Virus record (IMG/VR): IMGVR_UViG_3300036801_000470
Coordinates: 1,613 to 65,612 of that record
DNA: 64,000 bases
Direction: 5' to 3' (one strand)
Source: a virus
Taxonomy: Duplodnaviria > Caudoviricetes
Part shown: piece by piece, positions 2,807-27,556 of the stretch
How the letters are laid out: each line of letters starts with the position of its first letter
How positions within the stretch are numbered: position 1 is the stretch's first letter
Translations under genes and position numbers: made by a program
Notes under the pieces: model-generated
The model's input: the letters and a program-made list of their open reading frames with translations, nothing else
Told to the model about the DNA's origin: nothing
Database searches by the model: none

Positions 2807-3034
2807 ATGTCGATGGCAGCGCGGCGGAAAGCCGAGGAGGAGGTCGCCCGCTCGCTCGCGGATAGCCCCTGGGAGCGGGGGCTACGCGCTGCGAAGGCGG
2901 GAGAGTCGGGCGAGCGCCCGAAGCTCGTGATGTGCGCGTGCTGCAAGAGCCGACCGGCGGAGCCGGGCAGCGCCTTCTGCGGAGAGTTTTGCGCGATCGA
3001 CGCGGAGATTCGAGAGGCGTTTCGTGACCGATAG
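2807..3034 (+). CDS. Small Cys-rich hypothetical protein between sbcD and sbcC
   Basis: CACC...FCGEFC; purine-rich upstream sequence. Confidence 0.55.
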   Translation: MSMAARRKAEEEVARSLADSPWERGLRAAKAGESGERPKLVMCACCKSRPAEPGSAFCGEFCAIDAEIREAFRDR

Positions 3035-3036
3035 AG

Positions 3037-3064
3037 TTGCGCGCCGTACTAACGTGCGCATGGT
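3037..3064 (+). promoter_or_regulatory. Second copy of the TTGCGCGCCGTA-x-TAAC...GCGCATG(A/G)T promoter/operator, upstream of sbcC
   Basis: Direct sequence similarity to 617-645. Confidence 0.55.
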
Positions 3065-3090
3065 GTTTGGACACCGGAGACCGTGACCTG

Positions 3091-5592
3091 ATGCGATTCG
3101 GACGCTTCTACGCCAAAGGCTTGGGCATCTTCGCCGAGCCCTTCGAAGTGAATCTGGACGACGTCCCCGGGCCGCTCGTGGCGGTGACGGGCCCAAACGG
3201 CTGCGGGAAGAGCACTTTCCTCGAGCTGCTCGGCGCCGCCAGCGTCTACCGCGACACGCCGACGCACGGCTCGCTCGGCGCGCACGCGCGCTCGCGCGGG
3301 GCGGTGCTCGAGGTCGACGTCATCAACGGTGCTCGCTACCGCATCCGGCACACAGTAGACGGCCCGGGCAAGGGCGAGACGCTGGTGACCGACGTGAACG
3401 GCGTCCCGCAGCTCCCCGACACGAAGGTGTCGAGCTTCGACGCTTGGGCGAAGAAGCACTTCCCGCCGAAGGAGGTCACGTACGCCAGCCTCCTGGCCGC
3501 CCAGGAGTCGGATGGCCTTCTCGACATGGACCCGGGGCCGGCCAAGGGGGTCCTTCTCCGCGTGCTCGGCTGCGAAGAGCTCGAGACGAAGGCAAAGCGG
3601 GCGAGCGAGCGCGCGCGGGAGGCGAAGGCGGCCTGGCAGCTCGCCGGGGCGCGGCTGAAGGACGAGAAGGCGCGTCCCGAGGCGGTGCCGGTGGAAGAGG
3701 CGGAGTCGAAGCTGGCGCGGGCGCGCGAGGTCGTCGTCTACGCCGAGGGGGTCGCGAGCCAGGCGGAGGAGGACCTCGGGAAGGCGCGCGCCGCGGACGA
3801 GGCCCACCGTGCGAGCGTGCGGGAGCACGACGACGCCGTGTCGCGGCGAGCCGTCGGGCAAGCGGCGCTGGAGGCCGAGCAGAAGAAGCTCGAGGAGCTT
3901 CGCGTCCGCATCACGAACAACGAGGCGGTGCTCGCCGAGGAGGCGGTCATCCGCGCCGCCGCGGCGCGCGCGCAAGAGATCGGGGCTCGCATTCCGGAGC
4001 TCCGGACGAAGATCGAGGCCGCGCGGGGAGAGAAGAGGGCGGCGGAGGAAGCGCGGGCGCGCGCGGGGACGACCTCACGAGGGGCGCAGGATCGGAGGGA
4101 TGCGGCGCGCGGGCGCGCGGAGACGGCCGACGGTCGCGCGGACGCGCGCGCACAAGAGGCCTCGAAGGCGGAGGCTGAAGTCGGCCCCCTCAAGGCGGAG
4201 ATCGAAGCCGTCGATCGCGCGCTCGCCGAGGCGTCTGCGGAGGTGGAGCGGCTGCAGGGCGTGGCGCTCGTGGGGGCGGAGGGGCGGATCGAGTCCCTTC
4301 GCACTTCCCTCGCCGAGATCTGCGCGATCGGCGCCGAGGACAATCCGTACGCCACCGCCGTCCACGACGCGGAGAAGCGATTCCTTGACGCCCAGGATCG
4401 CGCCGCGAGCGCCCTGGCGGCTGACGACACCGCGGTGGCTGCCGCGCGCGACACCCCCGCCCTCCTCCGCGCCGCCAAGGCGAAGGAGACCCGCGCTCGT
4501 TCGCTCCTCACCGAGCTCCGCACGCGCCTCAGCACGACCGCGGCGCGCGCGGCGTGGGCAACGGAGGTGCCGGCGATCCGCGAGGACGCGGCCGCGGCCC
4601 GGCGCGAGGTCGAGGCGGCGGAGCGCGAGGACCTGGCCGCACGGGAGGACTGGGCGCGCGCCAACGCGCTGCTCGAAGGCTTCGGGCCGAAACTCGCGAG
4701 CCTGCAGGCGGAGATCCAAGCCCTCAGCGACGAGAACGTCGCCCTCGCCGACACCCTGAAGAAGCTTCGGCCCCTCGAGGCCGCCCAGGGTCGACTGGAG
4801 GAGCTCCGGCACGCGAGCGCGCAGGCCCGCGAGGCGCTCGCGCAGCGGGAGGCGGAGCTGGCCGCGATCGAGATCCCGCCGGTCGTCGGATCGGAGGCGC
4901 CGGCGCGCCTTCAGCAGGCCGCCGCGACGCACACCCAAGCCGTGCAGCTGCTCGAGCGGGCGCGCGCCGAGGTGACCCGCCTCGCGCCGACGGTGACGGC
5001 CGCGCACGAGAGCGCGGCACGATGCACCGCGCTCGAGGAGGAGGTGCGGCGCGCGGGCGAGGACCTGGGGGACTGGACGCTCCTGGCCGAGTCGCTCGGG
5101 CGGGACGGGCTCCAGGCGCTGCTCATCGACGCGGCCGGGCCCGAGCTCACGGCGATCGTGAACGACCTCCTGCACAACTGCCACGGGCCGCGGTTCACGA
5201 TGACGCTCGCGACGTCGCGCCTGTCGGGCGACGGGAAGAAGGAACTCGACGGGCTCGAGATCTCGGTGCTCGACACGCGCGAGGGGCGCGAGGCGTCGGG
5301 GAAGCTCTTCAGCGGGGGGGAGAAGACCTTCCTCCGGGAGGCGCTGTCTCTGGCCATCGTGATCCGGGCGTGCCGGGCGTCGGGAGCTCCCACCCTCATC
5401 CGAGATGAGTCGGGCTCGGCGCTCGATCCGGAGTACGGGCGGGCGTACATCGCCATGCTGCGGCGCGCGGCGGAGCACGTCGGGGCCAGCCGAGTGTTGT
5501 TTGTGTCCCACAACCCCGCTCTCGTAGAGCTCGCGGACGGGGTGATCGATCTGGGGGCGCGGGCGGCGAAGCTTGAGGGGTTCGTCTCGTGA
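3091..5592 (+). CDS. sbcC: SbcC/Rad50-like SMC-family ATPase
   Basis: Walker A GPNGCGKS, long coiled coil, signature FSGGE, Walker B LIRDE, H-loop VSH. Confidence 0.92.
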   Translation: MRFGRFYAKGLGIFAEPFEVNLDDVPGPLVAVTGPNGCGKSTFLELLGAASVYRDTPTHGSLGAHARSRGAVLEVDVINGARYRIRHTVDGPGKGETLVTDVNGVPQLPDTKVSSFDAWAKKHFPPKEVTYASLLAAQESDGLLDMDPGPAKGVLLRVLGCEELETKAKRASERAREAKAAWQLAGARLKDEKARPEAVPVEEAESKLARAREVVVYAEGVASQAEEDLGKARAADEAHRASVREHDDAVSRRAVGQAALEAEQKKLEELRVRITNNEAVLAEEAVIRAAAARAQEIGARIPELRTKIEAARGEKRAAEEARARAGTTSRGAQDRRDAARGRAETADGRADARAQEASKAEAEVGPLKAEIEAVDRALAEASAEVERLQGVALVGAEGRIESLRTSLAEICAIGAEDNPYATAVHDAEKRFLDAQDRAASALAADDTAVAAARDTPALLRAAKAKETRARSLLTELRTRLSTTAARAAWATEVPAIREDAAAARREVEAAEREDLAAREDWARANALLEGFGPKLASLQAEIQALSDENVALADTLKKLRPLEAAQGRLEELRHASAQAREALAQREAELAAIEIPPVVGSEAPARLQQAAATHTQAVQLLERARAEVTRLAPTVTAAHESAARCTALEEEVRRAGEDLGDWTLLAESLGRDGLQALLIDAAGPELTAIVNDLLHNCHGPRFTMTLATSRLSGDGKKELDGLEISVLDTREGREASGKLFSGGEKTFLREALSLAIVIRACRASGAPTLIRDESGSALDPEYGRAYIAMLRRAAEHVGASRVLFVSHNPALVELADGVIDLGARAAKLEGFVS

Positions 5593-10860: not shown

Positions 10861-10863
10861 GCG

Positions 10864-11655
10864 ATGCTCACTCCCCTCTGCCAGCGCTGGCGGGCGCGAC
10901 GCGCCTCCTATCGTCCCGCGCGGGAGCCGATTGACACCAGGCGGTTCGAGGTCGCTCCCATCGAGCGCGATGTTGCGCGCGGCTATGTCATAGCCAATCA
11001 CTACGCGGCGTCATACCCGGCGGGGCGCCTGAACTTCGGTCTATTCCAGGGTTCCGCGCTCGTCGGTGTCGCGGTCTTCTCCCATCCGGTGAACGAGGCC
11101 ACGCTGAAGGCGCTCCCCGGGGAGGGTCTCGAACGCATCGAGCTCGGTCGCTTCGTCCTCGACAACGAGGTCGGTGGGAACGGGGAGTCCTGGTTCCTGG
11201 CGCGCTGCTTCGAGCAACTTCGCTCCGAAGGGATCGTCTCGGTCATCTCCTTTTCCGACCCGGAGGCTCGATGCACGGCGGCCGGCGAGCCGGTGTTCGC
11301 CGGGCACATCGGTGGCATCTACCAAGCGAGTAACGCTGTCTACGCGGGGCGTGCTCGCCCCGATACGCAGCGACTCCTACCCGATGGCACGGTGCTTCAC
11401 TCGCGAGCGATCGCCAAGCTTCGGAAGCGTGAACGCGGGTGGACGACGGCCGCTCGTCTGCTCGAGAGCTACGGCGCTGAGCCTCTCCGTGTCGCCGAGG
11501 ACGCGGCGGCTTGGGCCGAGCGCTGGGTGCCGCGTCTGACCCGCAAGCGGCGCCACGACGGGAACCACAAGTACCTCTTCGGGCTCACGCGCGCCGCCAA
11601 GCGCGCGCTTCCCGAGAGCCTCCCTTACCCGAAGCTCGCCGCGAGGCTCGCGTGA
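10864..11655 (+). CDS. mom: Mom-family (GNAT-fold) DNA adenine modification protein
   Basis: ANHY, LVGVAVFS, IELGRF..D, NGESWFLARC, VISFSDP, GHIGGIYQASN motifs characteristic of Mu Mom homologues. Confidence 0.8.
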   Translation: MLTPLCQRWRARRASYRPAREPIDTRRFEVAPIERDVARGYVIANHYAASYPAGRLNFGLFQGSALVGVAVFSHPVNEATLKALPGEGLERIELGRFVLDNEVGGNGESWFLARCFEQLRSEGIVSVISFSDPEARCTAAGEPVFAGHIGGIYQASNAVYAGRARPDTQRLLPDGTVLHSRAIAKLRKRERGWTTAARLLESYGAEPLRVAEDAAAWAERWVPRLTRKRRHDGNHKYLFGLTRAAKRALPESLPYPKLAARLA

Positions 11656-12358: not shown

Positions 12359-12699
12359 GCGTCGTTCCCAGTCTGGGTCGCTGCATGCGCCCGATTCACT
12401 GCCGACCGAGCGCGCCGAAGTGCGACCACTGCCGGAGGGTGGTCGCCGACGCGAAGAAGCGCGCGGAAGCGATTGTCGCGACGGTGCGCGCGGAGATCGA
12501 TGCGGCGGTGGAGGATCTCGACTCGGCACGCGGCCAATCGTCTCCGCAAGAGGTGGTCGCGCAGGTGATCGCGGCCGCGCGCGAGGTGGATGCGGCGCAA
12601 GGCCGGAGCGGGAATCCATACGTCCGCGCCAGGCATCGCCTCCACCAGGCGATCGAGCAACTCGACAACATGGAACGGGAGATGGGGCTTAGGAAATGA
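12355..12699 (+). CDS. Hypothetical protein
   Basis: ATGA overlaps at both ends. Confidence 0.55.
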   Translation: MSVVPSLGRCMRPIHCRPSAPKCDHCRRVVADAKKRAEAIVATVRAEIDAAVEDLDSARGQSSPQEVVAQVIAAAREVDAAQGRSGNPYVRARHRLHQAIEQLDNMEREMGLRK

Positions 12700-14231
12700 G
12701 ACCGCCCTCGGTACGACTCTTTGCAGACGAGATCGTCGTCGACAACTTCGCCGGCGGCGGAGGGGCGTCGACGGGGATCGAGCGGGCGACCGATCGCTCC
12801 CCGGACCTCGCGATCAACCACAACGAGAACGCCCTCTCGATGCACCAGCGCAATCACCCGCGCACGCGCCATCTTCACGGCGACGTGTGGGACGTGGACC
12901 CGGTCGCCGTCTGCGCGGGGCGCCCGGTGGGCCTCGCGTGGTTCTCCCCCGATTGCACCGACTTCTCCCGCGCGAAGGGAAAGCGCCCCCGATCCCCGCG
13001 CGTTCGGGCGCTCGCCTGGGTCGTCATCCGCTGGGCCCGGACGGTGCGGCCCCGGGTCATCTTCATGGAGAACGTCGGGGAGTTTGCCGACTGGGGCCCC
13101 CTCGACGCGGAGGGTGAGCCCGACCCCGCGAAGCGCGGGCGGACGTTCAAGCATTGGCTCGGCAAGCTCCGCGGCGCTGGCTACCAGGTCGAATACCGGG
13201 AGCTCCGCGCCTGCGACTACGGCGCGCCCACCATCCGGAAGCGGCTCTTCCTGATCGCTCGCTGCGATGCTCGCCCCATCGTCTGGCCGATCCCGACGCA
13301 TGGGTTTGGCGGCCAGCCGCACCGGGCGGCGGCCGAGTGCATCGAGTGGGCCCTTCCCTGCCCCAGCATCTTCGGCCGGAAGAAAGCCCTCGCCGAGAAC
13401 ACCCTCCGCCGCATCGCGCGCGGCGTGCAGCGCTTCGTCCTCGAGTCCGGGCAGCCGTTCCTCATCCCGACCACGCACCAGGGCGACAGCCGCGTCCACT
13501 CGATCGCGGAGCCGCTGCGCACCGTCACGGGCGCGAATCGCGGGGAGCTCGCGCTCGTCGCCCCAAGCCTCATCCAGACTGGCTACGGCGAGCGCCGGGG
13601 ACAGGCCCCGCGGACGCTCGACATCCTCACGCCCCTGGGCACGGTCGTTGGTGGCGGCCAGAAGCACGGGCTCGTGTCGGCGTTCCTGGCGAAGCACTAT
13701 GGCCACCCCGACCGGAAGTCCGGAGGCGGCGCCGTCATCGGCAGCGAGCTGCGGAGCCCGATCGGGACCGTGACGTCGACCGACCACCATTCGCTCGTCA
13801 CGAGCCACATGGTGAAACTGCGCGGTACGTGCCCCGACGGCCAGCGGATGGACGCGCCGGCGCCGACGATCACCGCGGGCGGGACGCACCTCGGCGAGGT
13901 CCGGTCGTTCCTCACGCGCTTCAACGGCACCGGGGGCCCTGAACCCGTCCAGCTGCCGCTCGGCTCGGTGACGAGCAAGCCGCGCTTCGGGCTCGTGCGC
14001 GTGAGCGGGGAGGACTACGCGATCGCCGACATCGGGTTCCGAATGCTCCAGCCGCGCGAGTTGTACCGGGCGCAGTCGTTCGCCGACAGCTACGAGATCG
14101 AGCGCGGGCACGATGGGCGCGTGTTCACGAAGGAGACGCAGATCTTCCTCTGCGGGAACAGCGTTCCCCCGGTGATGGCCGAAGCGCTTGTGCGGGCGAA
14201 CCTCGCGAGCCGGGAAGAGGTGGCTGCTTGA
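12696..14231 (+). CDS. C5 DNA cytosine methyltransferase
   Basis: FAGGGG (I), SPDC (IV), MENV (VI), RKRLF (VIII), RML.PRELYRAQ (IX), GNSV (X). Confidence 0.95.
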   Translation: MRPPSVRLFADEIVVDNFAGGGGASTGIERATDRSPDLAINHNENALSMHQRNHPRTRHLHGDVWDVDPVAVCAGRPVGLAWFSPDCTDFSRAKGKRPRSPRVRALAWVVIRWARTVRPRVIFMENVGEFADWGPLDAEGEPDPAKRGRTFKHWLGKLRGAGYQVEYRELRACDYGAPTIRKRLFLIARCDARPIVWPIPTHGFGGQPHRAAAECIEWALPCPSIFGRKKALAENTLRRIARGVQRFVLESGQPFLIPTTHQGDSRVHSIAEPLRTVTGANRGELALVAPSLIQTGYGERRGQAPRTLDILTPLGTVVGGGQKHGLVSAFLAKHYGHPDRKSGGGAVIGSELRSPIGTVTSTDHHSLVTSHMVKLRGTCPDGQRMDAPAPTITAGGTHLGEVRSFLTRFNGTGGPEPVQLPLGSVTSKPRFGLVRVSGEDYAIADIGFRMLQPRELYRAQSFADSYEIERGHDGRVFTKETQIFLCGNSVPPVMAEALVRANLASREEVAA

Positions 14232-21171: not shown

Positions 21172-21462
21172 CTACGGACAGGAGAGAAAGCTTCGGTCGC
21201 ACGCCACGACCTCGGTGGCCGTGTGCGCGGTCTCGGCGCAGGCGAGCGCCGCGCGCGTCGTCAGGTTCTCGGAGACGGCCTGGCGCATCACGTCGGCGCA
21301 GTCACGGTCCTTGCCGATCGCGCACCCCACCCGAGCGAGGTTCTCGCAAACGACCGGAGCGTCGGCGAACGGGGGTGCGCTCGGCTCCTCTCCAGGCGCA
21401 GGACGTGGGCACGCCGCGCACGCCGCGAGGAGGAACGCGACGGGAAAGAGGGCGCGCATCAC
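21172..21462 (-). CDS. Cys-rich lipoprotein
   Basis: LLAAC lipobox, paired cysteines. Confidence 0.65.
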   Translation of the reverse strand: MMRALFPVAFLLAACAACPRPAPGEEPSAPPFADAPVVCENLARVGCAIGKDRDCADVMRQAVSENLTTRAALACAETAHTATEVVACDRSFLSCP

Positions 21463-22385
21463 GCCACCGCCTTGAGGGAGACCTCGAAGCGCATCGCGAC
21501 GACGCAGAGGGCGCGGAACTCGGCACCGGTCACCCAGATGCCCGCCTCCTCACCCCAGTCGCCCCACGAATTGCTGATCCAGTAGGATGTCGAACCGTCG
21601 GCCTCGGTGCGGTAGTCGAGGACGACCACGCCGTGGAGATCGTTCTCGGTGCAGCCCGTCGGGTCCGCGAAGGGCGCCTGGTTCGGTACCCATCGATCCC
21701 CCCAGAGCTGCAGGGCGGACGTCGCGTGAATGCCGACGAGCACCGGCCACCCAATCGGGGTGGCCGAGATCGCCGCGCGAACATGGTCCTCGAAGTCCGC
21801 CTGGGTCGGGTCGAGGAGCTGGACGCGCGAGGTGTCAACGCCGCGCTTCCGTCCAAGCTCCGACTCCGCCGCGGTCGGGCGCGCGTGCATGTTTGCCGGC
21901 GGAGGACTCGGCAGGTTCTTGACGTCGTCCTCCGTCCAGACGTCGGACACGCGCCCGTCGGGGGAGAGCTGGACGCTGCCGTCCGCGTTGCGCGGCCAGT
22001 CGATCATCCCCTGGTGGTCGAGGGCGGTGATGCAATCGACCATGTCCACCCCCTCGTTCGGGAGGGGACCCGTACCGGCGTCTTCTTCGCTGCGGATCGT
22101 GGCCCAGAACCACCGGACCGACGCCTCGAAGGCCTCCCAGGAGGAGGCCGCGAGGCCCAGCGCGACGAGCTGCGCGATGACGACGCGCATCGCGGTGCTG
22201 AGGGCGTGGGCGACGCAGCCTTCGCTCCGTCCCTGGTTTAGGCGCAGTCGCCGGTGGCGCCGGAGCGATGCCGCCGGCGGCGAGGGCGCCGCGCCTTCGG
22301 TCGGGTGTGGTGCGCCGAGGCGATGGTGCTTCCAGGGACGATGGACCAGTCCCTTGCCATGGATCGGGGTCTGCTCTTCGCTCAT
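21459..22385 (-). CDS. Papain-like (C1) cysteine peptidase
   Basis: NQGRSEGCVAHA (oxyanion Q, catalytic C), LHGV (His), WISNSWG (Asn). Confidence 0.85.
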   Translation of the reverse strand: MSEEQTPIHGKGLVHRPWKHHRLGAPHPTEGAAPSPPAASLRRHRRLRLNQGRSEGCVAHALSTAMRVVIAQLVALGLAASSWEAFEASVRWFWATIRSEEDAGTGPLPNEGVDMVDCITALDHQGMIDWPRNADGSVQLSPDGRVSDVWTEDDVKNLPSPPPANMHARPTAAESELGRKRGVDTSRVQLLDPTQADFEDHVRAAISATPIGWPVLVGIHATSALQLWGDRWVPNQAPFADPTGCTENDLHGVVVLDYRTEADGSTSYWISNSWGDWGEEAGIWVTGAEFRALCVVAMRFEVSLKAVA

Positions 22386-22396
22386 GATGCGTTCCT

Positions 22397-22618
22397 TCAG
22401 CGGTGAATCAGGAAGAGAACGAGCGCGGCGCCGGCGCCCATGCCGAGCGCGAAGGCGGCCAGCGAGACGAGGACTGCGCGGACGATTGCGCGCTCCTCGG
22501 CGTGGGCTGCGTCGCTTGGGGGACACTCGAGGGCGTCACGCATCGGAGTCGCTGTCCCCGCGTTACGTTCGGGTGAGCATTCGTGCATACGCGCCGGCCC
22601 CCTCTTGAATGGAGGCAA
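22397..22618 (-). CDS. Small membrane protein (start uncertain)
   Basis: C-terminal hydrophobic helix. Confidence 0.45.
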   Translation of the reverse strand: MPPFKRGPARMHECSPERNAGTATPMRDALECPPSDAAHAEERAIVRAVLVSLAAFALGMGAGAALVLFLIHR

Positions 22619-22823
22619 GCGCCCCGTACGCGGACGCCGCCTTTTGCAAGGCCGCGAGCGCGTCTTCGCGGTTTTGGACCGTCTTGGCGTCGGTCTGTCT
22701 TTCCGTCGCGATTAGAAAGTCGTAGAGCGCGTAGTCCAGCGCACGGGCGATCAGTTCGGCGTGCGCGGCGTCGCGCTCGGTCTCGGCCGCGTCCGCGCTT
22801 CCTTCTTGTGCTGCTTCACTCAT
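22563..22823 (-). CDS. Hypothetical protein
   Basis: GAGG RBS, helical. Confidence 0.5.
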   Translation of the reverse strand: MSEAAQEGSADAAETERDAAHAELIARALDYALYDFLIATERQTDAKTVQNREDALAALQKAASAYGALASIQEGAGAYARMLTRT

Positions 22824-22830
22824 CGCGGCC

Positions 22831-23394
22831 TCACGTCTCCCAGGGAGGAACGAGGCCGGGCACGTCATCGAGACGGCGCCGCCGCTCATTCAGGTAGCGC
22901 ATCGCCGTCGGGAGCGCCTGGACCTGGAAGTCGACGGGGAGATGCGTGTGGTTCGCGCCCTGCACGTTCATCTTCGCGATCTCGACGTGCCAGCGCCGGT
23001 CGGCGTCCATCTCGTCGACGTCGGTGAGGACTCGTTCGGCGCTTCGCCAGGGACCGAAGCGCGCCTCGAACTCGGAGGCCAGGAGGACGACGCGTACGTC
23101 GATGTCGCGCGGCGTGGCGTCCTTGAGCGCGCCACCGCAGAGGAAGACCGGGCGGCCGTAGCGGCTCGCCATGAGGTTCGCCCAGCCGCGGAGCATGCGG
23201 CCCTGCCAGTCGTTGAGCTTGCGATCCGCCCACGATTCGTGGTCGACGCGCGCCTCAAGAACCGCGGCGAGGGACCGGCCGCCGCAGACCTTGCAGGAGG
23301 CGTCCCCATCGCAGCCGGCGTAGTTCGTCCCCGACTCGCCGACTCCGCGCCAAGCGCCCGGGCACCACCACTCGCCTTCTTTGGGATGGGTCAT
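22831..23394 (-). CDS. Minimal Pol-beta-type nucleotidyltransferase
   Basis: VFLCGGALKDATPRDIDVRVVL (hG[GS]..DhD) and third Asp in LPVDFQ. Confidence 0.7.
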   Translation of the reverse strand: MTHPKEGEWWCPGAWRGVGESGTNYAGCDGDASCKVCGGRSLAAVLEARVDHESWADRKLNDWQGRMLRGWANLMASRYGRPVFLCGGALKDATPRDIDVRVVLLASEFEARFGPWRSAERVLTDVDEMDADRRWHVEIAKMNVQGANHTHLPVDFQVQALPTAMRYLNERRRRLDDVPGLVPPWET

Positions 23395-23762
23395 GTGACG
23401 TTTCCGTTCGTGATGAAGCCGTGCCAGCAGGACGGCGTCCCGACATCCACGCTCGGCGTGAGCGTGAGATCCTCGAGATTCGTCCCGCTCATCGTCCAAC
23501 GCGTCTTGGTGACGCGGTCCCGCCCGGTGATGCCGAAGTTCGCCTCGACGATTGCAGCCCCGCGTGGGTTCGCGAACGGAACGATCAGCCCGTGCGGGCG
23601 CGCCCCGTCGAGTGGGTACTCGGCCTTGCCGTAGCCGCACGGACACCAGAGGTTGATTCCCTGAGCGCCGTCGATGCTCGACAGATAGCAGAAGGACCCT
23701 TTCTCGGTGCCGCGACCGATGAAGGTCGCTTCGAACCACGGATCCGACAGACGAGCGATCAC
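23391..23762 (-). CDS. DUF6527-like protein
   Basis: LWCPCG...WT...LTLTPSV...CWHGFITNG; AAGGAG RBS before GTG 23762. Confidence 0.7.
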   Translation of the reverse strand: MIARLSDPWFEATFIGRGTEKGSFCYLSSIDGAQGINLWCPCGYGKAEYPLDGARPHGLIVPFANPRGAAIVEANFGITGRDRVTKTRWTMSGTNLEDLTLTPSVDVGTPSCWHGFITNGNVT

Positions 23763-23774
23763 GGCGTCTCCTTT

Positions 23775-24141
23775 TGCGCGCTCTCGCGCGACATCGAAGC
23801 CAGGCTGTCGGTCCCTCTTCGGTTCCGCCCGGCTCGCCTCTTCGATCACTCCGTCGGCAGGCACCAGCAGAACGCGCCGGCCGGCTGAACAGAGAGGTGC
23901 ACGATGCTCGTGTGCCGCTCGATCTGCCGCCCGTAAGGGTCGCCCTTCGCCTCATCGCTGCTCACGAGAACCAGGTTGACCCCGGGCATCCCGCCAAGGC
24001 TCTCCCAGGTGCGCGTGACGAGCGCGTCGTGACGCTCTCGCTGCCCGTCGATGAAGACGATCGCCTGTCCGACTTTGATGTCTCGATTCGACATGATGTC
24101 CGCTGCCCTTTCGCGACTTCGGTGTCGCGCGAGAGCGCGCA
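23775..24141. repeat. 25-bp inverted repeat pair (23775-23799 and 24117-24141, 24/25 identical) enclosing one gene
   Basis: TGCGCGCTCTCGCGCGACATCGAAG on + and TGCGCGCTCTCGCGCGACACCGAAG on -. Confidence 0.9.
23846..24094 (-). CDS. 82-aa SH3-like conserved phage protein
   Basis: IKVGQAIVFID...ALVTRTW...VNLVLV...TSIVH...W pattern. Confidence 0.7.
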   Translation of the reverse strand: MSNRDIKVGQAIVFIDGQRERHDALVTRTWESLGGMPGVNLVLVSSDEAKGDPYGRQIERHTSIVHLSVQPAGAFCWCLPTE

Positions 24142-24152
24142 GTCCTTCGTTG

Positions 24153-24428
24153 TTATGTTCCCGCTGTCCCACGCCGATCGGCGAGTTCCTTGAGGAATCC
24201 CCAGCAACGATGCGCGCACGCGTTCGCGTGGTCGGCATTGTGCGGGAGACCGCCTTCGGTGGGGAGACAGTGCGGCGGCAGCGAGAGCATCGCTCGCTCG
24301 GCTTCGCTCATCGCCATCTTGAGCAAGTCGTCGTCTGTCGCGGCTCTGCGACGGTGCCTGGCATATGCCTCGCGGAGCGGCTCGACCATCTGCTTCTCTT
24401 GCACGGCTGGCTCCCTTCCGTAGCTCAC
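24153..24428 (-). CDS. Hypothetical protein
   Basis: GTGA coupling with upstream gene. Confidence 0.45.
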   Translation of the reverse strand: MSYGREPAVQEKQMVEPLREAYARHRRRAATDDDLLKMAMSEAERAMLSLPPHCLPTEGGLPHNADHANACAHRCWGFLKELADRRGTAGT

Positions 24429-24682
24429 GCGAACAGCGTTCGAAGCTGCCCGCTCAGCCCCACGATCGGGATGGCGATGCCAGCCACCTCCGACGCGATC
24501 TTCAGCCCCGCCACGAGCCGGTCGAAGACCGACACCGAGGCGATGACGTTCGCGTCGCGGTACGTCCGCAGGAGCAGTTCGAGGTCCTCCGCCGAGGCCT
24601 CGGCGAGCGCCTGAACGTCCGCCGGCTTGAAGCTCGTCTCCTCGGCGATCTTGGCGATCGCCGTCATCATCTCGGGCGTCAT
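24425..24682 (-). CDS. Hypothetical protein
   Basis: GGAGGA RBS before ATG 24682. Confidence 0.6.
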   Translation of the reverse strand: MTPEMMTAIAKIAEETSFKPADVQALAEASAEDLELLLRTYRDANVIASVSVFDRLVAGLKIASEVAGIAIPIVGLSGQLRTLFA

Positions 24683-25041
24683 GGTCCGGCGTCCTCCCGC
24701 CAGGCGCACGTGCACACGTGATTCTGGCAAACGAGCGATTCTCGGCACGATGAAGGGATCGGCACCGGCTTGGGCGGCGGTGGGGGCTGGCAGACGATCG
24801 CCCCGCCGGCGTCGGGCGGGCCCGCGTCGTTCCGGACGAGCACCCTTTCCGCCGCGCAGAACGCCGCCCGGTCGCGGGCGGCCGCCAGCGTCGTCTCAGG
24901 CCCGCGCTCGTAGTTGCGAAGCGTCAGGTCAGCGACGTCGCGCACGCTCGCCGCGTCCTCGGGGGCGAGCGCGTAGCGCACGCAGGAGGTCACGGCGAGG
25001 ACCGACAGCGCGGCGAGCCCGATGCGGAGCGAGGAGCCCAC
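24679..25041 (-). CDS. Lipoprotein (possible spanin-like)
   Basis: Lipobox VTSC, Pro-rich C-terminus. Confidence 0.55.
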   Translation of the reverse strand: MGSSLRIGLAALSVLAVTSCVRYALAPEDAASVRDVADLTLRNYERGPETTLAAARDRAAFCAAERVLVRNDAGPPDAGGAIVCQPPPPPKPVPIPSSCRESLVCQNHVCTCAWREDAGP

Positions 25042-25048
25042 GCGCGCC

Positions 25049-25843
25049 TCAGTGGTAGCGCGAGAGCGACGCGATCTGGTCGTGCAGCGCGGCGCGGTGC
25101 GCGACGTACGAGGAGTCGAGCGTCGGCCCCACGCCGCCAAGCGCGGCCCCTGTCTTCGGGTCCGCCCATACGTCCACGGCGGCCACCACCCTCGCCAGCG
25201 CGTCTTGCGCGTCGGCGATGAGCTTCGCCCAGTCCTGCGCCTTCCCGTCCTGGTAGGCGGCGAGGGCATCGTTGATGGCAGACACGGCGTCCGCTTCGCT
25301 CGACTCTGCCCGATCGAACGCGGCCTGGGCGCTCGCCTGCTGCGATGGCGCTAGGCGCTGCACGATGACTGCGAAGAGCGCCTTGGCGCCGTCGTTGGCG
25401 ACGTTCAGGGCCAGCTCGAAGTCGCCCACGTACACGGCGGGGCTCTTGGCGATGTCCTGCGCCAACGAGCACCCCGAGGTCCCTCCGAGCGCCAGCGCGC
25501 CGAGAAGCATGACCGCGGCGCCACCTTTGGCCATGGTCGACGCGCGCGCCCGTCCGAGCGTGAGCCCGTGCGTGTCGATGACCGGTAGTTTGCCCAGCGC
25601 CTTCGCCACGATCGTGAACAGCGGCACCTTCGGGAAGAGAGCGGCCAAGCCGGTGAAGAGCGCCGACAGCAGCGTCCCGACCCCCATCGCCACCACGATG
25701 TAGTGATCGAAGCTCCCGCCTCCGGCGGGCGCCGGAGGGGGAACGGGTGTCGGGTCGGCCTGGATGGCCAGGGCGGCCGTCGTCCCGAGCAGGACAGCGC
25801 CGAAGGTGAAGACCGCGGATCGATGCTTGATGAGGAACTTCAT
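25049..25843 (-). CDS. Multi-pass membrane protein with a helical C-terminal domain (holin/spanin candidate)
   Basis: Three or more hydrophobic segments, internal TSGC lipobox-like motif, GGAGAGG RBS. Confidence 0.6.
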   Translation of the reverse strand: MKFLIKHRSAVFTFGAVLLGTTAALAIQADPTPVPPPAPAGGGSFDHYIVVAMGVGTLLSALFTGLAALFPKVPLFTIVAKALGKLPVIDTHGLTLGRARASTMAKGGAAVMLLGALALGGTSGCSLAQDIAKSPAVYVGDFELALNVANDGAKALFAVIVQRLAPSQQASAQAAFDRAESSEADAVSAINDALAAYQDGKAQDWAKLIADAQDALARVVAAVDVWADPKTGAALGGVGPTLDSSYVAHRAALHDQIASLSRYH

Positions 25844-25917
25844 GCAGACCTCTCCCGTCCGAGCCCGGGGGCTCGGCTGTTGCGGCTCCGCTGGGAGCCG
25901 GTTCGCTATGCGGCCCG

Positions 25918-26598
25918 TCAGCCCTCGTGGCCGTCGGTCGGCACGGCGCCGAGCGTGGGCACATCGACGGGCGGCAGCCTCGACGCGGCTGCCTTGCAGT
26001 CCTTGACGAAGGCGGCGCCGACCAGCGCCAAGAACACCGCGAAGGCCGTCCCCAGCACCTGGCCAATAAGCTTCTGAGAGGTCTCGTTGAACGAGGCCCC
26101 GATGCCTTCGAGCATCGACGTCTGCCGGGCGTTCTCGGCGGCGATGCGCTCGTTCTGGGCGATGACCCGCTCGGTCTTCTCGTCCACCCGCTCGAGGATC
26201 GGCGTCTGCGCCTTCGTCTCCGCGGCCGCCTCGACGGCATTCATCGCGGCAACCCGGAGCGACTCTCGCCCAGAGCGAATCACCTCGTTCGTCACCGACT
26301 GCGCCGGCGGCCGCACCGCGTGTGTCGGGGTCGCCGGCTCGATCGGCGGAAACGCCACTTCGTACGACGGCAGCGATTCATGAACGCCGGCCACGATCTG
26401 CCGCTCGACGGTGTCGAGCCGAGCCTCCATCGCGCTCAGGCGCTTGCCATGGCCCTCGCTCTGCCCCTTGATCAGGTCCACGTTGCGGCCCATGCGCCGC
26501 ACGGCCCGCAGCGTCTCGCGCGCTAGCTCGGCGGCGTCCTCGGGCTCGGGAGGGTCGGTGATCGGCGTGCCGTCGTCGGTGTTCGTAGGATCTTCCAC
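25918..26598 (-). CDS. Coiled-coil protein with C-terminal TM helix
   Basis: Heptad-rich sequence then LIGQVLGTAFAVFLALVGAAFV. Confidence 0.65.
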   Translation of the reverse strand: MEDPTNTDDGTPITDPPEPEDAAELARETLRAVRRMGRNVDLIKGQSEGHGKRLSAMEARLDTVERQIVAGVHESLPSYEVAFPPIEPATPTHAVRPPAQSVTNEVIRSGRESLRVAAMNAVEAAAETKAQTPILERVDEKTERVIAQNERIAAENARQTSMLEGIGASFNETSQKLIGQVLGTAFAVFLALVGAAFVKDCKAAASRLPPVDVPTLGAVPTDGHEG

Positions 26599-26623
26599 GG
26601 GTTGCGACTTTCTGCCCTACTGA

Positions 26624-27400
26624 ATGGACCTGATTACCGGAGCCTTCGAGACCTCTTACCGTCCTGGCGCGATGATCGCGGTTGACCAGCTCCCCGCACG
26701 CTTCGGCCGTCGTTTGCGTCGCTACACCGCCCAAGCGAGGGCAGGCCTCGCTGCAGGCATCCGTGTCGCGCGCGCGCCGGCGAGCCTCCTCACGAGCGAC
26801 CGCGACGTGCGCCTAGCCGTCTCGCGTTACCTCGAGGCCTCGAAGCCAGCCGCCCTGAATCTCGGCAGCGGTACGGTCCCCATGGCCGGCTGGTTCAACA
26901 TCGATCTGGACGGCCATGGCCAGATCTCGAGGGACCTAACGCAGGGGCTGCCGTACCTACCCGACGACTCGTTCGACTTCGCGTTCAGCGAGCACTTTTT
27001 GGAGCACATCGAGCGGCGCCAGGCGGCGCACTTGCTCACCGAGGTCCGCCGCGTCTTGCGGGGCGGCGGGCGCCTTCGCCTGGCCATCCCGGACCTCGAT
27101 CTCGTGATCGACCGCTATCGAGACGGGCGCTGGAACAGCCGCGACGATGAAGGACTTCAGCGCGGGTTCGCGCCGCACTACGGCGGCGCGCTCCTCACGC
27201 GCGGCGAGTGGATCGACATGGCGTTCCGGCAGTGGGGTCACCGGTACCTCTACAACTTCGAGGACCTCTCGCGCGTGCTCTCGCAGGCGGGCTTCCGCTC
27301 GATCGAGCGCGTCGCCCACAAGCAGTCGCGCGAACCGTTCCTCGCGGGCCTCGAGACCCGGCCGCCGGATGCCTCCGCCCTCGTCGTCGAGGCGAGCTAG
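26624..27400 (+). CDS. Class I SAM-dependent methyltransferase (glycan-locus type), opposite to late transcription
   Basis: LNLGSG, WFNIDL, DLTQGLPY..DSFDFAFSEHFLEH, RVLRGGG.LRLAIPD. Confidence 0.85.
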   Translation: MDLITGAFETSYRPGAMIAVDQLPARFGRRLRRYTAQARAGLAAGIRVARAPASLLTSDRDVRLAVSRYLEASKPAALNLGSGTVPMAGWFNIDLDGHGQISRDLTQGLPYLPDDSFDFAFSEHFLEHIERRQAAHLLTEVRRVLRGGGRLRLAIPDLDLVIDRYRDGRWNSRDDEGLQRGFAPHYGGALLTRGEWIDMAFRQWGHRYLYNFEDLSRVLSQAGFRSIERVAHKQSREPFLAGLETRPPDASALVVEAS

Positions 27401-27409
27401 GCTCGCGGA

Positions 27410-27556
27410 ATGCTACGCCTCCTCCCTATTGCCGGCCTCACGTTCGTCGCGGTCGGGCCTCTTCTGCCGAACCCCATCGACGTCTGCTGCATCGTGCTGG
27501 GCATTGGGCTCGCCCTCGCCTCGCTCGCTTCGCATTACCGCGCGCAGCATCGCTGA
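27410..27556 (+). CDS. 48-aa two-helix membrane peptide (not in ORF track)
   Basis: MLRLLPIAGLTFVAVGPLLPNPIDVCCIVLGIGLALASLASHYRAQHR; TAGGCT -10 lies 6 nt before ATG. Confidence 0.5.
   Translation: MLRLLPIAGLTFVAVGPLLPNPIDVCCIVLGIGLALASLASHYRAQHR

Follow-up and report, generated by a model that had tools for sequence, protein, structure and literature searches.

In the mRNAs of type I toxins, metastable hairpins that mask the Shine-Dalgarno (SD) sequence give way to a long-distance interaction between the 5' and 3' regions (PMC6733600). For Bacillus subtilis, PMC11780869 describes the cleavage of long-range (>100 nucleotides, nt) intramolecular mRNA duplexes by ribonuclease III (RNase III). 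In the icaR mRNA of Staphylococcus aureus, a UCCCC motif of the 3' untranslated region pairs with the SD sequence, an interaction that is repressive and creates a substrate for RNase III (PMC3868564). The locus analysed here resembles each of these systems in part. It lies in a stretch of 64,000 nt (the window; positions 1,613 to 65,612 of the IMG/VR record IMGVR_UViG_3300036801_000470, a 65.6-kb provirus rated 64% complete), where a nearly perfect inverted repeat brackets a single gene encoding 82 amino acids (aa). The two arms are in our judgement probably the strands of a conserved long-range RNA helix (P0), which would act as a co-transcriptional translational switch and probably also as a substrate of RNase III, and not the ends of a mobile cassette.

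The similarity to hok (plasmid R1) and to aapA1 and aapA3 (Helicobacter pylori; PMC6733600) concerns both layout and folding path. A small open reading frame (ORF) is enclosed by pairing between a segment 5' to the ribosome-binding site (RBS) and a segment 3' of the stop codon, and local hairpins with a CU-rich anti-SD stretch mask the SD sequence before a more stable long-distance helix replaces them, a succession that is predicted for the present locus. However, whereas the final helix of hok and aapA sequesters the SD sequence and needs 3' trimming, P0 takes up the anti-SD stretch and spares the SD sequence. It ends 12–25 nt before the start codon, and sequestration of the SD sequence by a long-distance helix is encountered only in some relatives of a different build (class B, see below). 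The toxin mRNAs pair at their transcript ends, whereas the unit in the window sits inside an operon; they encode short hydrophobic membrane peptides, whereas the 82-aa product is modelled as a soluble beta-barrel (predicted local distance difference test, pLDDT, 90.8). They are also accompanied by cis-encoded antisense RNAs, of which no counterpart is known for the present locus; a consensus scan of window positions 22500-27500 yielded no sigma-70-like promoter on either strand.

A second similarity is with the leader-trailer stems of 16S and 23S rRNA and the long-range duplexes of B. subtilis (PMC11780869), in which a duplex of at least two helical turns brackets an RNA whose ends are hundreds of nt apart. 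P0 falls into the same size range of about 20 base pairs (bp) or more (25–28 positions in the window and 23–35 in relatives), and its pairing is kept by compensatory change. Unlike these helices, it competes with a conserved RBS-masking hairpin and stacks on a conserved 3' hairpin, and its cleavage is putative. In its predicted working, the element is closest to type I toxin mRNAs and RNase III processing helices, but it belongs to neither group: its product differs from the toxin peptides, P0 leaves the SD sequence free, and cleavage is putative. Literature searches on the general mechanism, in which the gene family and its motifs were not queried by name, listed no description of this element.

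Architecture of the element

The arms comprise 25 nt each, of which 24 are paired (96%), and are separated by 317 nt; once G-U pairs are allowed, the helix extends to 28 positions (24114-24141 with 23775-23802). They occupy both intergenic gaps around the 82-aa ORF. The parts of the element are the following.

24114..24141 (core 24117-24141), minus strand: 5' arm of P0, recognised by pairing, conserved position and covariation in relatives
24105..24136, minus strand: local alternative fold of the leader, recognised by the minimum free energy (MFE) fold of the 5' part, RNAalifold and accessibility
23846..24094, minus strand: small gene, 82 aa, of an unnamed phage-borne family with a predicted SH3/Tudor/KOW-like beta-barrel
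23799..23833, minus strand: 3' RNA element (stems P1 and P2) between stop codon and 3' arm, recognised by a covariance model, covariation and G-U bias
23775..23802 (core 23775-23799), minus strand: 3' arm of P0, which begins right after P1 without a linker

A scan of the window for inverted repeats of at least 20 nt within 1500 nt returned 43 cases, and among the 25 longest listed, the P0 arms were the only pair with more than 83% complementarity (70–83% in the others listed). With up to three mismatches, the arm sequence matches only these two sites in the window, and none of 100 dinucleotide shuffles gave two or more matches. The two occurrences are also the only ones in the entire provirus record, and no exact copy was present in other viral or genome contigs of the collections searched.

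On the mRNA, the stop codon of an upstream 91-aa ORF is followed by 11 nt, the 5' arm, the 3' strand of a hairpin, the purine run AAAGGG, another 11 nt, and the AUG of the small gene; its UGA is followed by the 3' element, the 3' arm, AAAGGAG, 5 nt, and the GUG of a gene with a match to DUF6527. The initial annotation of this DNA had described the 24/25 complementarity of the arms around the gene at 23846-24094 and the flanking sequences GAAGGAC and AAAGGAG, the latter being the SD sequence of the DUF6527-like gene, and all of this was borne out by the repeat scan, the shuffles and the mRNA order. It overlooked the conserved hairpin between stop codon and 3' arm.

Within the 5' arm lie GCUCU (24132-24136), which is the anti-SD stretch, and CGCGAC (24124-24129), which forms the 5' strand of the hairpin. 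In the local fold, the latter pairs with GUCGCG (24112-24117) across the loop ACCGAA, and the hairpin is extended by GCUCU with AGGGC (24105-24109) and by CUGC with GCGG. This fold, which had been proposed in the same form before, is the MFE structure of the 5' part: the first 101 nt folded alone have an MFE of -32.1 kcal/mol (z score -2.25) with the SD purines paired, so that the purine-rich SD region AAAGGG (24106-24111) is predicted to be masked. By contrast, both the MFE and the centroid folds of the full-length element hold P0 together with P1 and P2 (z score -2.16). Since P0 and the SD-masking hairpin have the same strand of the 5' arm in common, the two predicted pairings are mutually exclusive. 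The 3' arm resembles a copy of the 3' strand of the hairpin plus the SD purines and could serve as a decoy for the anti-SD stretch; an example is L027, whose leader has GCCGCUGGAAGG where its 3' arm has GUCGCGUGGAAGG. A boxA-like CGCUCU in the 5' arm of the window is limited to the closest relatives and was taken as coincidence.

The 3' element of the window consists of an outer stem P1, formed by GCCGGGC (23827-23833) and GCCUGGC (23799-23805), a bulge GACA (23806-23809) on the 3' side, and a hairpin P2, GGAACC-GAAGA-GGGACC (23810-23826), with tandem non-standard pairs. In the window class, the 3' strand of P1 continues into the 3' arm without a linker. This allows P0, P1, and P2 to stack as a single long and irregular hairpin, from whose 5' side the RBS and the ORF would bulge out over ~300 nt.

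Recurrence and covariation in related phages

Profile-guided searches with the 82-aa protein located 47 viral and three genome loci, and later 12 metagenome loci; the main comparison set, an unbiased one, comprised 41 non-redundant loci including the window. Long-range pairing was scored by an ungapped helix search between the 100 nt ahead of the start codon and the 130 nt past the stop codon. Duplex folding of 130-nt flanks gave over-long structures and served only for spotting stems. Helix scores were between 32 and 51 in 15 of the 41 loci and did not exceed 25 in the other 26. All but one of the high-scoring loci share the geometry of the window, with a 5' arm that ends 12–25 nt before the start codon and a 3' arm that starts 37–51 nt past the stop codon; the one of different build is L032.

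A search with the leader pattern added three loci of the window type (L077, L098, and L146), and a metagenome scan added L177, L178, L182, L184 (nearly identical to L186), and L188. With these eight, the number of distinct window-type loci is 22. Their arms differ in sequence yet stay complementary, and the enclosed proteins are 38–66% identical to that of the window. The P0 helices of 14 relatives have 23–35 positions and few mismatches. About half of 17 window-type (class A) loci, the window (24142-24150) among them, carry an SD-like purine run (GAAGGAC, AAAGGAG, GAGGAG, AAAGG, GGUAGG) immediately 5' of the 5' arm; these runs lack complementarity to the 3' flank and are not accounted for by a target duplication.

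Covariation is most evident when the arms of different loci are exchanged. Cognate arm pairs score 44.0 (range 33–53), compared with 22.2 (standard deviation 5.8) for non-cognate pairs, and in 15 of the 17 rows the best-scoring partner is the cognate one. In an alignment of P0 from 17 loci, anchored on the conserved core with offsets of -16 to +8, pairing occurs in 191 of the 204 cells (93.6%) of the 12 distal columns, whereas non-cognate combinations pair in 1908 of 3264 (58.5%); each of these columns shows 3–5 standard pair types. The 13 proximal columns are conserved in sequence and pair in 89.6% of cells, compared with 80.2% after swapping arms. The loci L182 and L184 differ by one compensatory exchange of A-U for G-C (CGAAGC/GCUUCG versus CGAGGC/GCCUCG). 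Covariation across related phages had been suggested as a check; the arms are conserved in position in 22 loci and covary in the 17 that were aligned. On the weakly resolved protein tree, presence of P0 is clustered, requiring 6 changes as against 13.9 for shuffled labels (none of 500 shuffles as low), and a single origin of the trait may be compatible with the tree.

The arms are also specific to the gene family. The leader pattern occurs at 91 sites in viral contigs, of which 88 could be scored. A helix of at least 40 is present at seven of the eight sites that precede a family ORF (the eighth scores 32) and at none of the 80 sites without one (maximum 35; controls up to 31), which argues for this specificity.

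The local hairpin is present in all 17 leaders examined, with compensatory variants: the window has CGCGAC/GUCGCG, L014 and L023 share GUGGC/GCCAC, and L009 has UGCAGC/GCUGCA; an A-U pair of the window hairpin is U-A in L014 and L023. For each variant, the 3' arm carries the matching change, and therefore one 5' strand covaries with two alternative partners. RNAalifold of the 17 leaders recovers the hairpin together with an outer helix of three pairs between the pyrimidines of the 5' arm and the SD purines, and compensatory changes support six of the eight consensus pairs, one of which reads C-G in six leaders, G-C in six, and U-A in two. In partition-function folds, the mean unpaired probability of the SD region rises from 0.32 for the leader alone to 0.51 for the full element, and accessibility increases with the 3' arm present in 15 of the 17 loci. 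In L183:1-560, the leader hairpin is kept (GCGCGGCACCGAAGCCGCGGAAGG), the 3' hairpin is truncated, and no 3' arm lies behind it, whereas its near-twin L185 has an intact 3' hairpin up to the contig end; in L183, the 3' half of the switch may have been lost through a natural deletion.

The 3' element is more widespread than P0. A composite hairpin directly past the stop codon occurs in 38 of the 41 loci. Its outer stem, P1, has up to 11 pairs, a bulge of 3–7 nt lies on the 3' side, and P2 has the form NNxyCC - 5-nt loop - GGy'x'N'N', whose two middle pairs are non-standard (A-A/A-G, U-G/A-C, C-A/A-C or U-G/G-U). Alignments by MAFFT left P1 out of register owing to the variable bulge length and were replaced by that of a covariance model built on five seeds. 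At E ≤ 1, the model has 24 matches in 377 kb, one per locus and each directly 3' of a family gene; the sole match in the window is 23799-23833 (28.5 bits, E 1.5e-4). Across the model alignment, 97.3% of the cells pair, as against 67.3% in shuffles (none of 500 reaches the observed value) and 27–46% in slid controls, and all seven P1 pairs vary on both sides. A separate count for P1 in 37 loci, which scored G-U and A-C alike, found 214 Watson-Crick pairs, 27 G-U, 4 A-C, and 6 others. The excess of G-U over A-C (binomial p 3.4e-5) therefore places the structure on the sense RNA.

Natural variation points in the same direction. Four sequencing runs contain the window sequence, all of them soil-metagenome DNA available as assembled contigs, in which rare forms drop out. 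In one of them (X3), a contig of 569 nt spans 23659-24227 with eight differences, three of which fall within the 17 nt of P2 while the arms are unchanged. Two of the three (23825 C>T and 23811 G>A) convert the second P2 pair from G-C to A-U in a compensatory manner; the third (23818 T>A) changes the loop GAAGA to the family consensus GAUGA.

Neither the leader with P0 nor P1/P2 has a family in Rfam 15: there was nothing relevant at E ≤ 10 in 23500-24400, and eight related loci searched at E ≤ 1 yielded only tRNAs and one sub-threshold match that overlaps a tRNA. In the AT-rich phage L024 (600-5310), the small gene lies within an array of eight tRNA genes (Rfam matches). The exact 17-nt P2 motif occurs in 31 places in viral contigs, 18 of them after a family ORF. 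Of the 13 others, 11 were examined directly or via an identical copy and lie inside a long ORF that reads GTDEEP or GTDEGP there, and they were dismissed as chance matches.

The loops of P2 are pentaloops of the type GA(N)GA or GAG(N)A (GAAGA, GAUGA, GACGA, GAGCA, GAGUA), equivalent to a GAGA tetraloop with one extra base; a second class (UUAAC, UUGAC, UAAAA) occurs with GGAACC/GGUGCC stems. The boxB hairpins of phages lambda and P22 have GNRA-type pentaloops, and GAAGA is also the boxB loop of lambda nutL. The resemblance is a lead only: P2 has tandem non-standard pairs and an outer P1, and, unlike the nut sites, the locus has no conserved boxA and no N-like protein was found.

Proposed mechanism and alternatives

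Computation showed that the arms pair, that this pairing is conserved and covaries, that the local fold and P0 exclude one another, and that a 3' element and a bias towards the sense strand are present; from these, we infer the order of folding, the direction of the translational effect, and the cleavage by RNase III. P0, a helix of ~25 bp on the sense mRNA, would close the RBS, the small ORF, and the 3' hairpin into a loop. During transcription, the 5' arm would form the local hairpin, whose pyrimidines pair with the SD purines and hold back initiation. Once the polymerase has passed the ORF and P1/P2, the 3' arm would emerge and, being longer than the local partner and similar to it, would capture the 5' arm, stack on P1, and release the SD sequence. 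With at least 23 bp, the helix would be long enough for RNase III, and cleavage would excise the message of the gene from the polycistronic late transcript, while the inner half of the helix, the one conserved in sequence, would keep the two ends of the message together. Release is our best estimate of the sign of the effect of P0 in the window class, based on the modelled folds. The first of two interpretations in the initial annotation, that pairing of the arms frees the RBS or creates an RNase III-type stem, fits all of the computed results. As a structure, it has the support of the complementary arms of 22 loci and of the covarying SD-masking hairpin, and as a mechanism it is plausible in view of the predicted SD accessibility; excision of the message and a gating of the downstream genes, which had also been suggested, are putative.

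Several observations weigh against this interpretation. P0 is absent in 26 of the 41 family loci, and the helix is therefore not required for the gene to function. The loci share ancestry, so that the cells of the alignments do not represent independent events, and the pair counts of P1 were drawn from an alignment fitted to the model. Across 15 loci, P0 has 28 G-U and 13 A-C combinations, but the excess comes mostly from two inherited columns that alternate between G-C and G-U (9/17 and 10/17 G-U), which renders the evidence for the sense strand only suggestive for P0 itself. The change in predicted SD accessibility is moderate, absent in L008, and reversed in L052. Finally, among the loci without window-type arms (class B), L032:2960-3300, L053, L036, L054, L024, and L055 have an RBS or start region that itself pairs with a site 45–60 nt past the stop codon, just beyond the 3' element. 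Of the 27 loci tested outside class A, these six reach p ≤ 0.05 for this pairing, where ~1.4 are expected by chance; it comprises 17 bp in L032, including GGAGG against CCUUC, and 13 positions in L053. As modelled, this layout would be repressive, the opposite logic to that of the window class, and the direction of control in the latter could thus be misjudged. The common theme of both classes is the closure of a loop beside the 3' hairpin.

The best-surviving alternative, which we consider possible but rather unlikely, is that P0 is purely a stem for processing by RNase III and for insulation, comparable to the leader-trailer helices of rRNA, and that the masking of the SD sequence is incidental. 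RNase III requires roughly two helical turns, and the P0 helices, all with 23–35 positions and few mismatches, exceed that length. Moreover, their distal half is kept as pairing and not as sequence, as expected for a sequence-nonspecific enzyme. Long-range duplexes cleaved by this enzyme in mRNAs are documented (PMC11780869). However, a mere processing stem leaves unexplained the conserved local hairpin with its three-way covariation, the covarying anti-SD/SD helix, and the likeness of the 3' arm to the hairpin strand plus the SD sequence.

Less probable still is a repressive role of P0, in which the RBS would lie at a three-way junction beside the 3' hairpin and initiation would be blocked by the fold or by a bound factor, either the small protein or a host factor. 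The conserved sequence of the 3' hairpin, its tandem non-standard pairs, and its GA(N)GA-type pentaloop suggest specific recognition, the hairpin abuts P0 without a linker, and in the class B loci with significant pairing the partner covers the RBS directly. There are also precedents in icaR (PMC3868564) and aapA (PMC6733600); the icaR mRNA shares with the window the pairing between 3' untranslated region and leader, but its repression by UCCCC-SD pairing is nearer to class B loci such as L032 than to the window. Against repression in the window class speak an SD sequence that is not part of P0 and whose predicted accessibility is higher when P0 is present, and an 82-aa protein that is slightly acidic overall (counted from the translation), which is unusual for an RNA binder and, as far as composition can tell, argues weakly against binding to its own RNA hairpin.

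The position of the cassette in unrelated neighbourhoods raises the question of mobility. It lies directly before the terminase large subunit gene (terL) in L014 and downstream of one in L022, with a virion structural protein on one side and a tail assembly chaperone on the other in L052, among genes for RuvC, SSB, and ParB in L009, and next to genes for a peptidase (L013), a sigma factor (L023), or a methyltransferase (L044). The neighbours in the window have no homologues at any related locus, except for a weak DUF6527 match in L052. Judging from these contexts, the unit clearly moves between phage genomes. The second interpretation in the initial annotation had accordingly considered a transposase-less cassette with terminal inverted repeats and a decayed target duplication, or an invertible segment.

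No support for this interpretation came from the loci, ORFs, and contigs searched. The longest string common to the 14-nt flanks is 0–5 nt in the 17 loci, and the AAGGA shared by the flanks in the window belongs to an SD sequence. Sequence conservation is lowest at the outermost positions of the arms, and the distal arm sequence differs in each lineage. No recombinase family was detected by Pfam and PHROG among the 10 neighbouring ORFs scanned, and at the leader-pattern sites scored, such arms surround no other gene family, a possibility that had also been raised. Joints indicative of inversion or deletion were absent from the four DNA runs, which is weak evidence because only contigs are available and two runs (X2 and X4) leave parts uncovered. 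The route to empty sites via the upstream 91-aa protein ended without a relative in viral contigs. The 26 family members without P0 likewise lie beside genes unrelated to those of the window.

With no duplication, variable arm ends, a single copy, gene-specific arms, and no joints, the arms are read as belonging to the RNA of the gene itself and as accompanying the gene when it moves by ordinary recombination. A function at the DNA level, as terminal inverted repeats or as crossover sites of an invertible segment, is very improbable, since the unrelated neighbourhoods (L014, L052, L009) and the location of the arms at the cassette boundaries are outweighed by the lack of a target duplication (0–5 nt), the variability of the terminal positions, the uniqueness of the arm in the record and the collections, its restriction to one gene family, the G-U bias on the sense strand, the equally unrelated surroundings of members without P0, and the absence of recombinases and joints in the material searched.

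The gene family, its genomic setting, and significance

The 82-aa ORF represents a genuine gene that is under selection. Ten homologues, with an invariant motif D-x-YGRQIER, were combined into a profile; it retrieves 719 representative clusters at E ≤ 0.001 and, with the stricter limit of E ≤ 1e-10, 588. The protein has no match in Pfam, PHROGs, or PDB sequences, and its neighbours in the Atlas are all annotated as "hypothetical protein" of Uroviricota. An AlphaFold model based on 66 sequences predicts a small barrel of five strands with the high pLDDT given above. The nearest structural neighbours are Tudor, KOW, chromo, and SH3-like domains with Z scores of up to 6.9, a level that the search tool deems common; Foldseek found nothing in the PDB at E ≤ 0.001, and the wider structural search only generic small-barrel matches.

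PHROG matches of the window proteins indicate a contractile-tailed phage, and the small gene belongs to a series of small minus-strand ORFs downstream of the tail genes. The order on the transcript is 91-aa ORF, 82-aa ORF, DUF6527-match gene, and 187-aa ORF. The surrounding features are the following.

~64000 down to 37500, minus strand: genes for tail sheath, baseplate hub and wedge, major head protein, and a portal-like protein (PHROG)
24153-24428, minus strand: upstream 91-aa ORF, whose stop codon lies 11 nt ahead of the 5' arm
23391..23774 including the SD sequence (ORF 23391-23762), minus strand: downstream gene with a Pfam match to DUF6527 (E 3.2e-08)

The SD sequence AAAGGAG (23768-23774) of the DUF6527-match gene abuts the end of the 3' arm, 5 nt ahead of the GTG start codon. 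In Pfam and PHROG scans of the window neighbours, the 91-aa ORF had no relatives; the 187-aa ORF has neither a Pfam nor a PHROG match, and its previous designation as a nucleotidyltransferase ("NTase") was not reproduced. Consensus scans of 22500-27500 found no sigma-70-like promoter and no terminator-like site on the minus strand, which is consistent with one polycistronic message.

Further observations concern the surroundings. Genes on the plus strand, all before 15300, form an early region that encodes an SbcC-like nuclease subunit, a Mom-like DNA modification protein, and a DNA methyltransferase (3028-5589, 10861-11652, and 12693-14228). A papain-like cysteine peptidase may be encoded near the cassette at 21459-22526 on the minus strand (Pfam Peptidase_C1, E 0.0092, a weak match below the cut-off); a peptidase gene also lies near the cassette in L013 (3346-4170, minus strand; PHROG, E 7e-16), which may be coincidence. 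In the contigs of X3 and X4, substitutions and small indels relative to the window are clustered at 23324-23356 (within 23284-23458), where the DUF6527 gene meets the 187-aa ORF, which suggests a strain-variable spot.

To our knowledge, there are few worked examples of long-distance pairing in bacterial and phage mRNAs. The present gene family offers more than 20 natural variants of a long-distance helix, together with a three-way covariation and a strongly covarying 3' hairpin that is not listed in Rfam. It may serve as a test system for co-transcriptional control of translation, for the action of RNase III on operon transcripts, and for the ways in which accessory genes of phages keep their expression independent of the landing site. 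It also marks an uncharacterised protein family of 719 clusters as one whose regulation by phages is unusually careful.

A broader and more tentative proposal is that an RNA-controlled unit of this widespread, unnamed beta-barrel family travels between unrelated phage genomes, in which a switch of anti-SD, SD, and 3' decoy would admit ribosomes only after full transcription, the message would then be excised, and the 3' hairpin would dock a partner. We know of no other mRNAs of such a build than those that encode toxins, and for this reason the 82-aa protein may, if the proposal is true, be harmful or dose-critical to the host, for example as a takeover or anti-defence factor.

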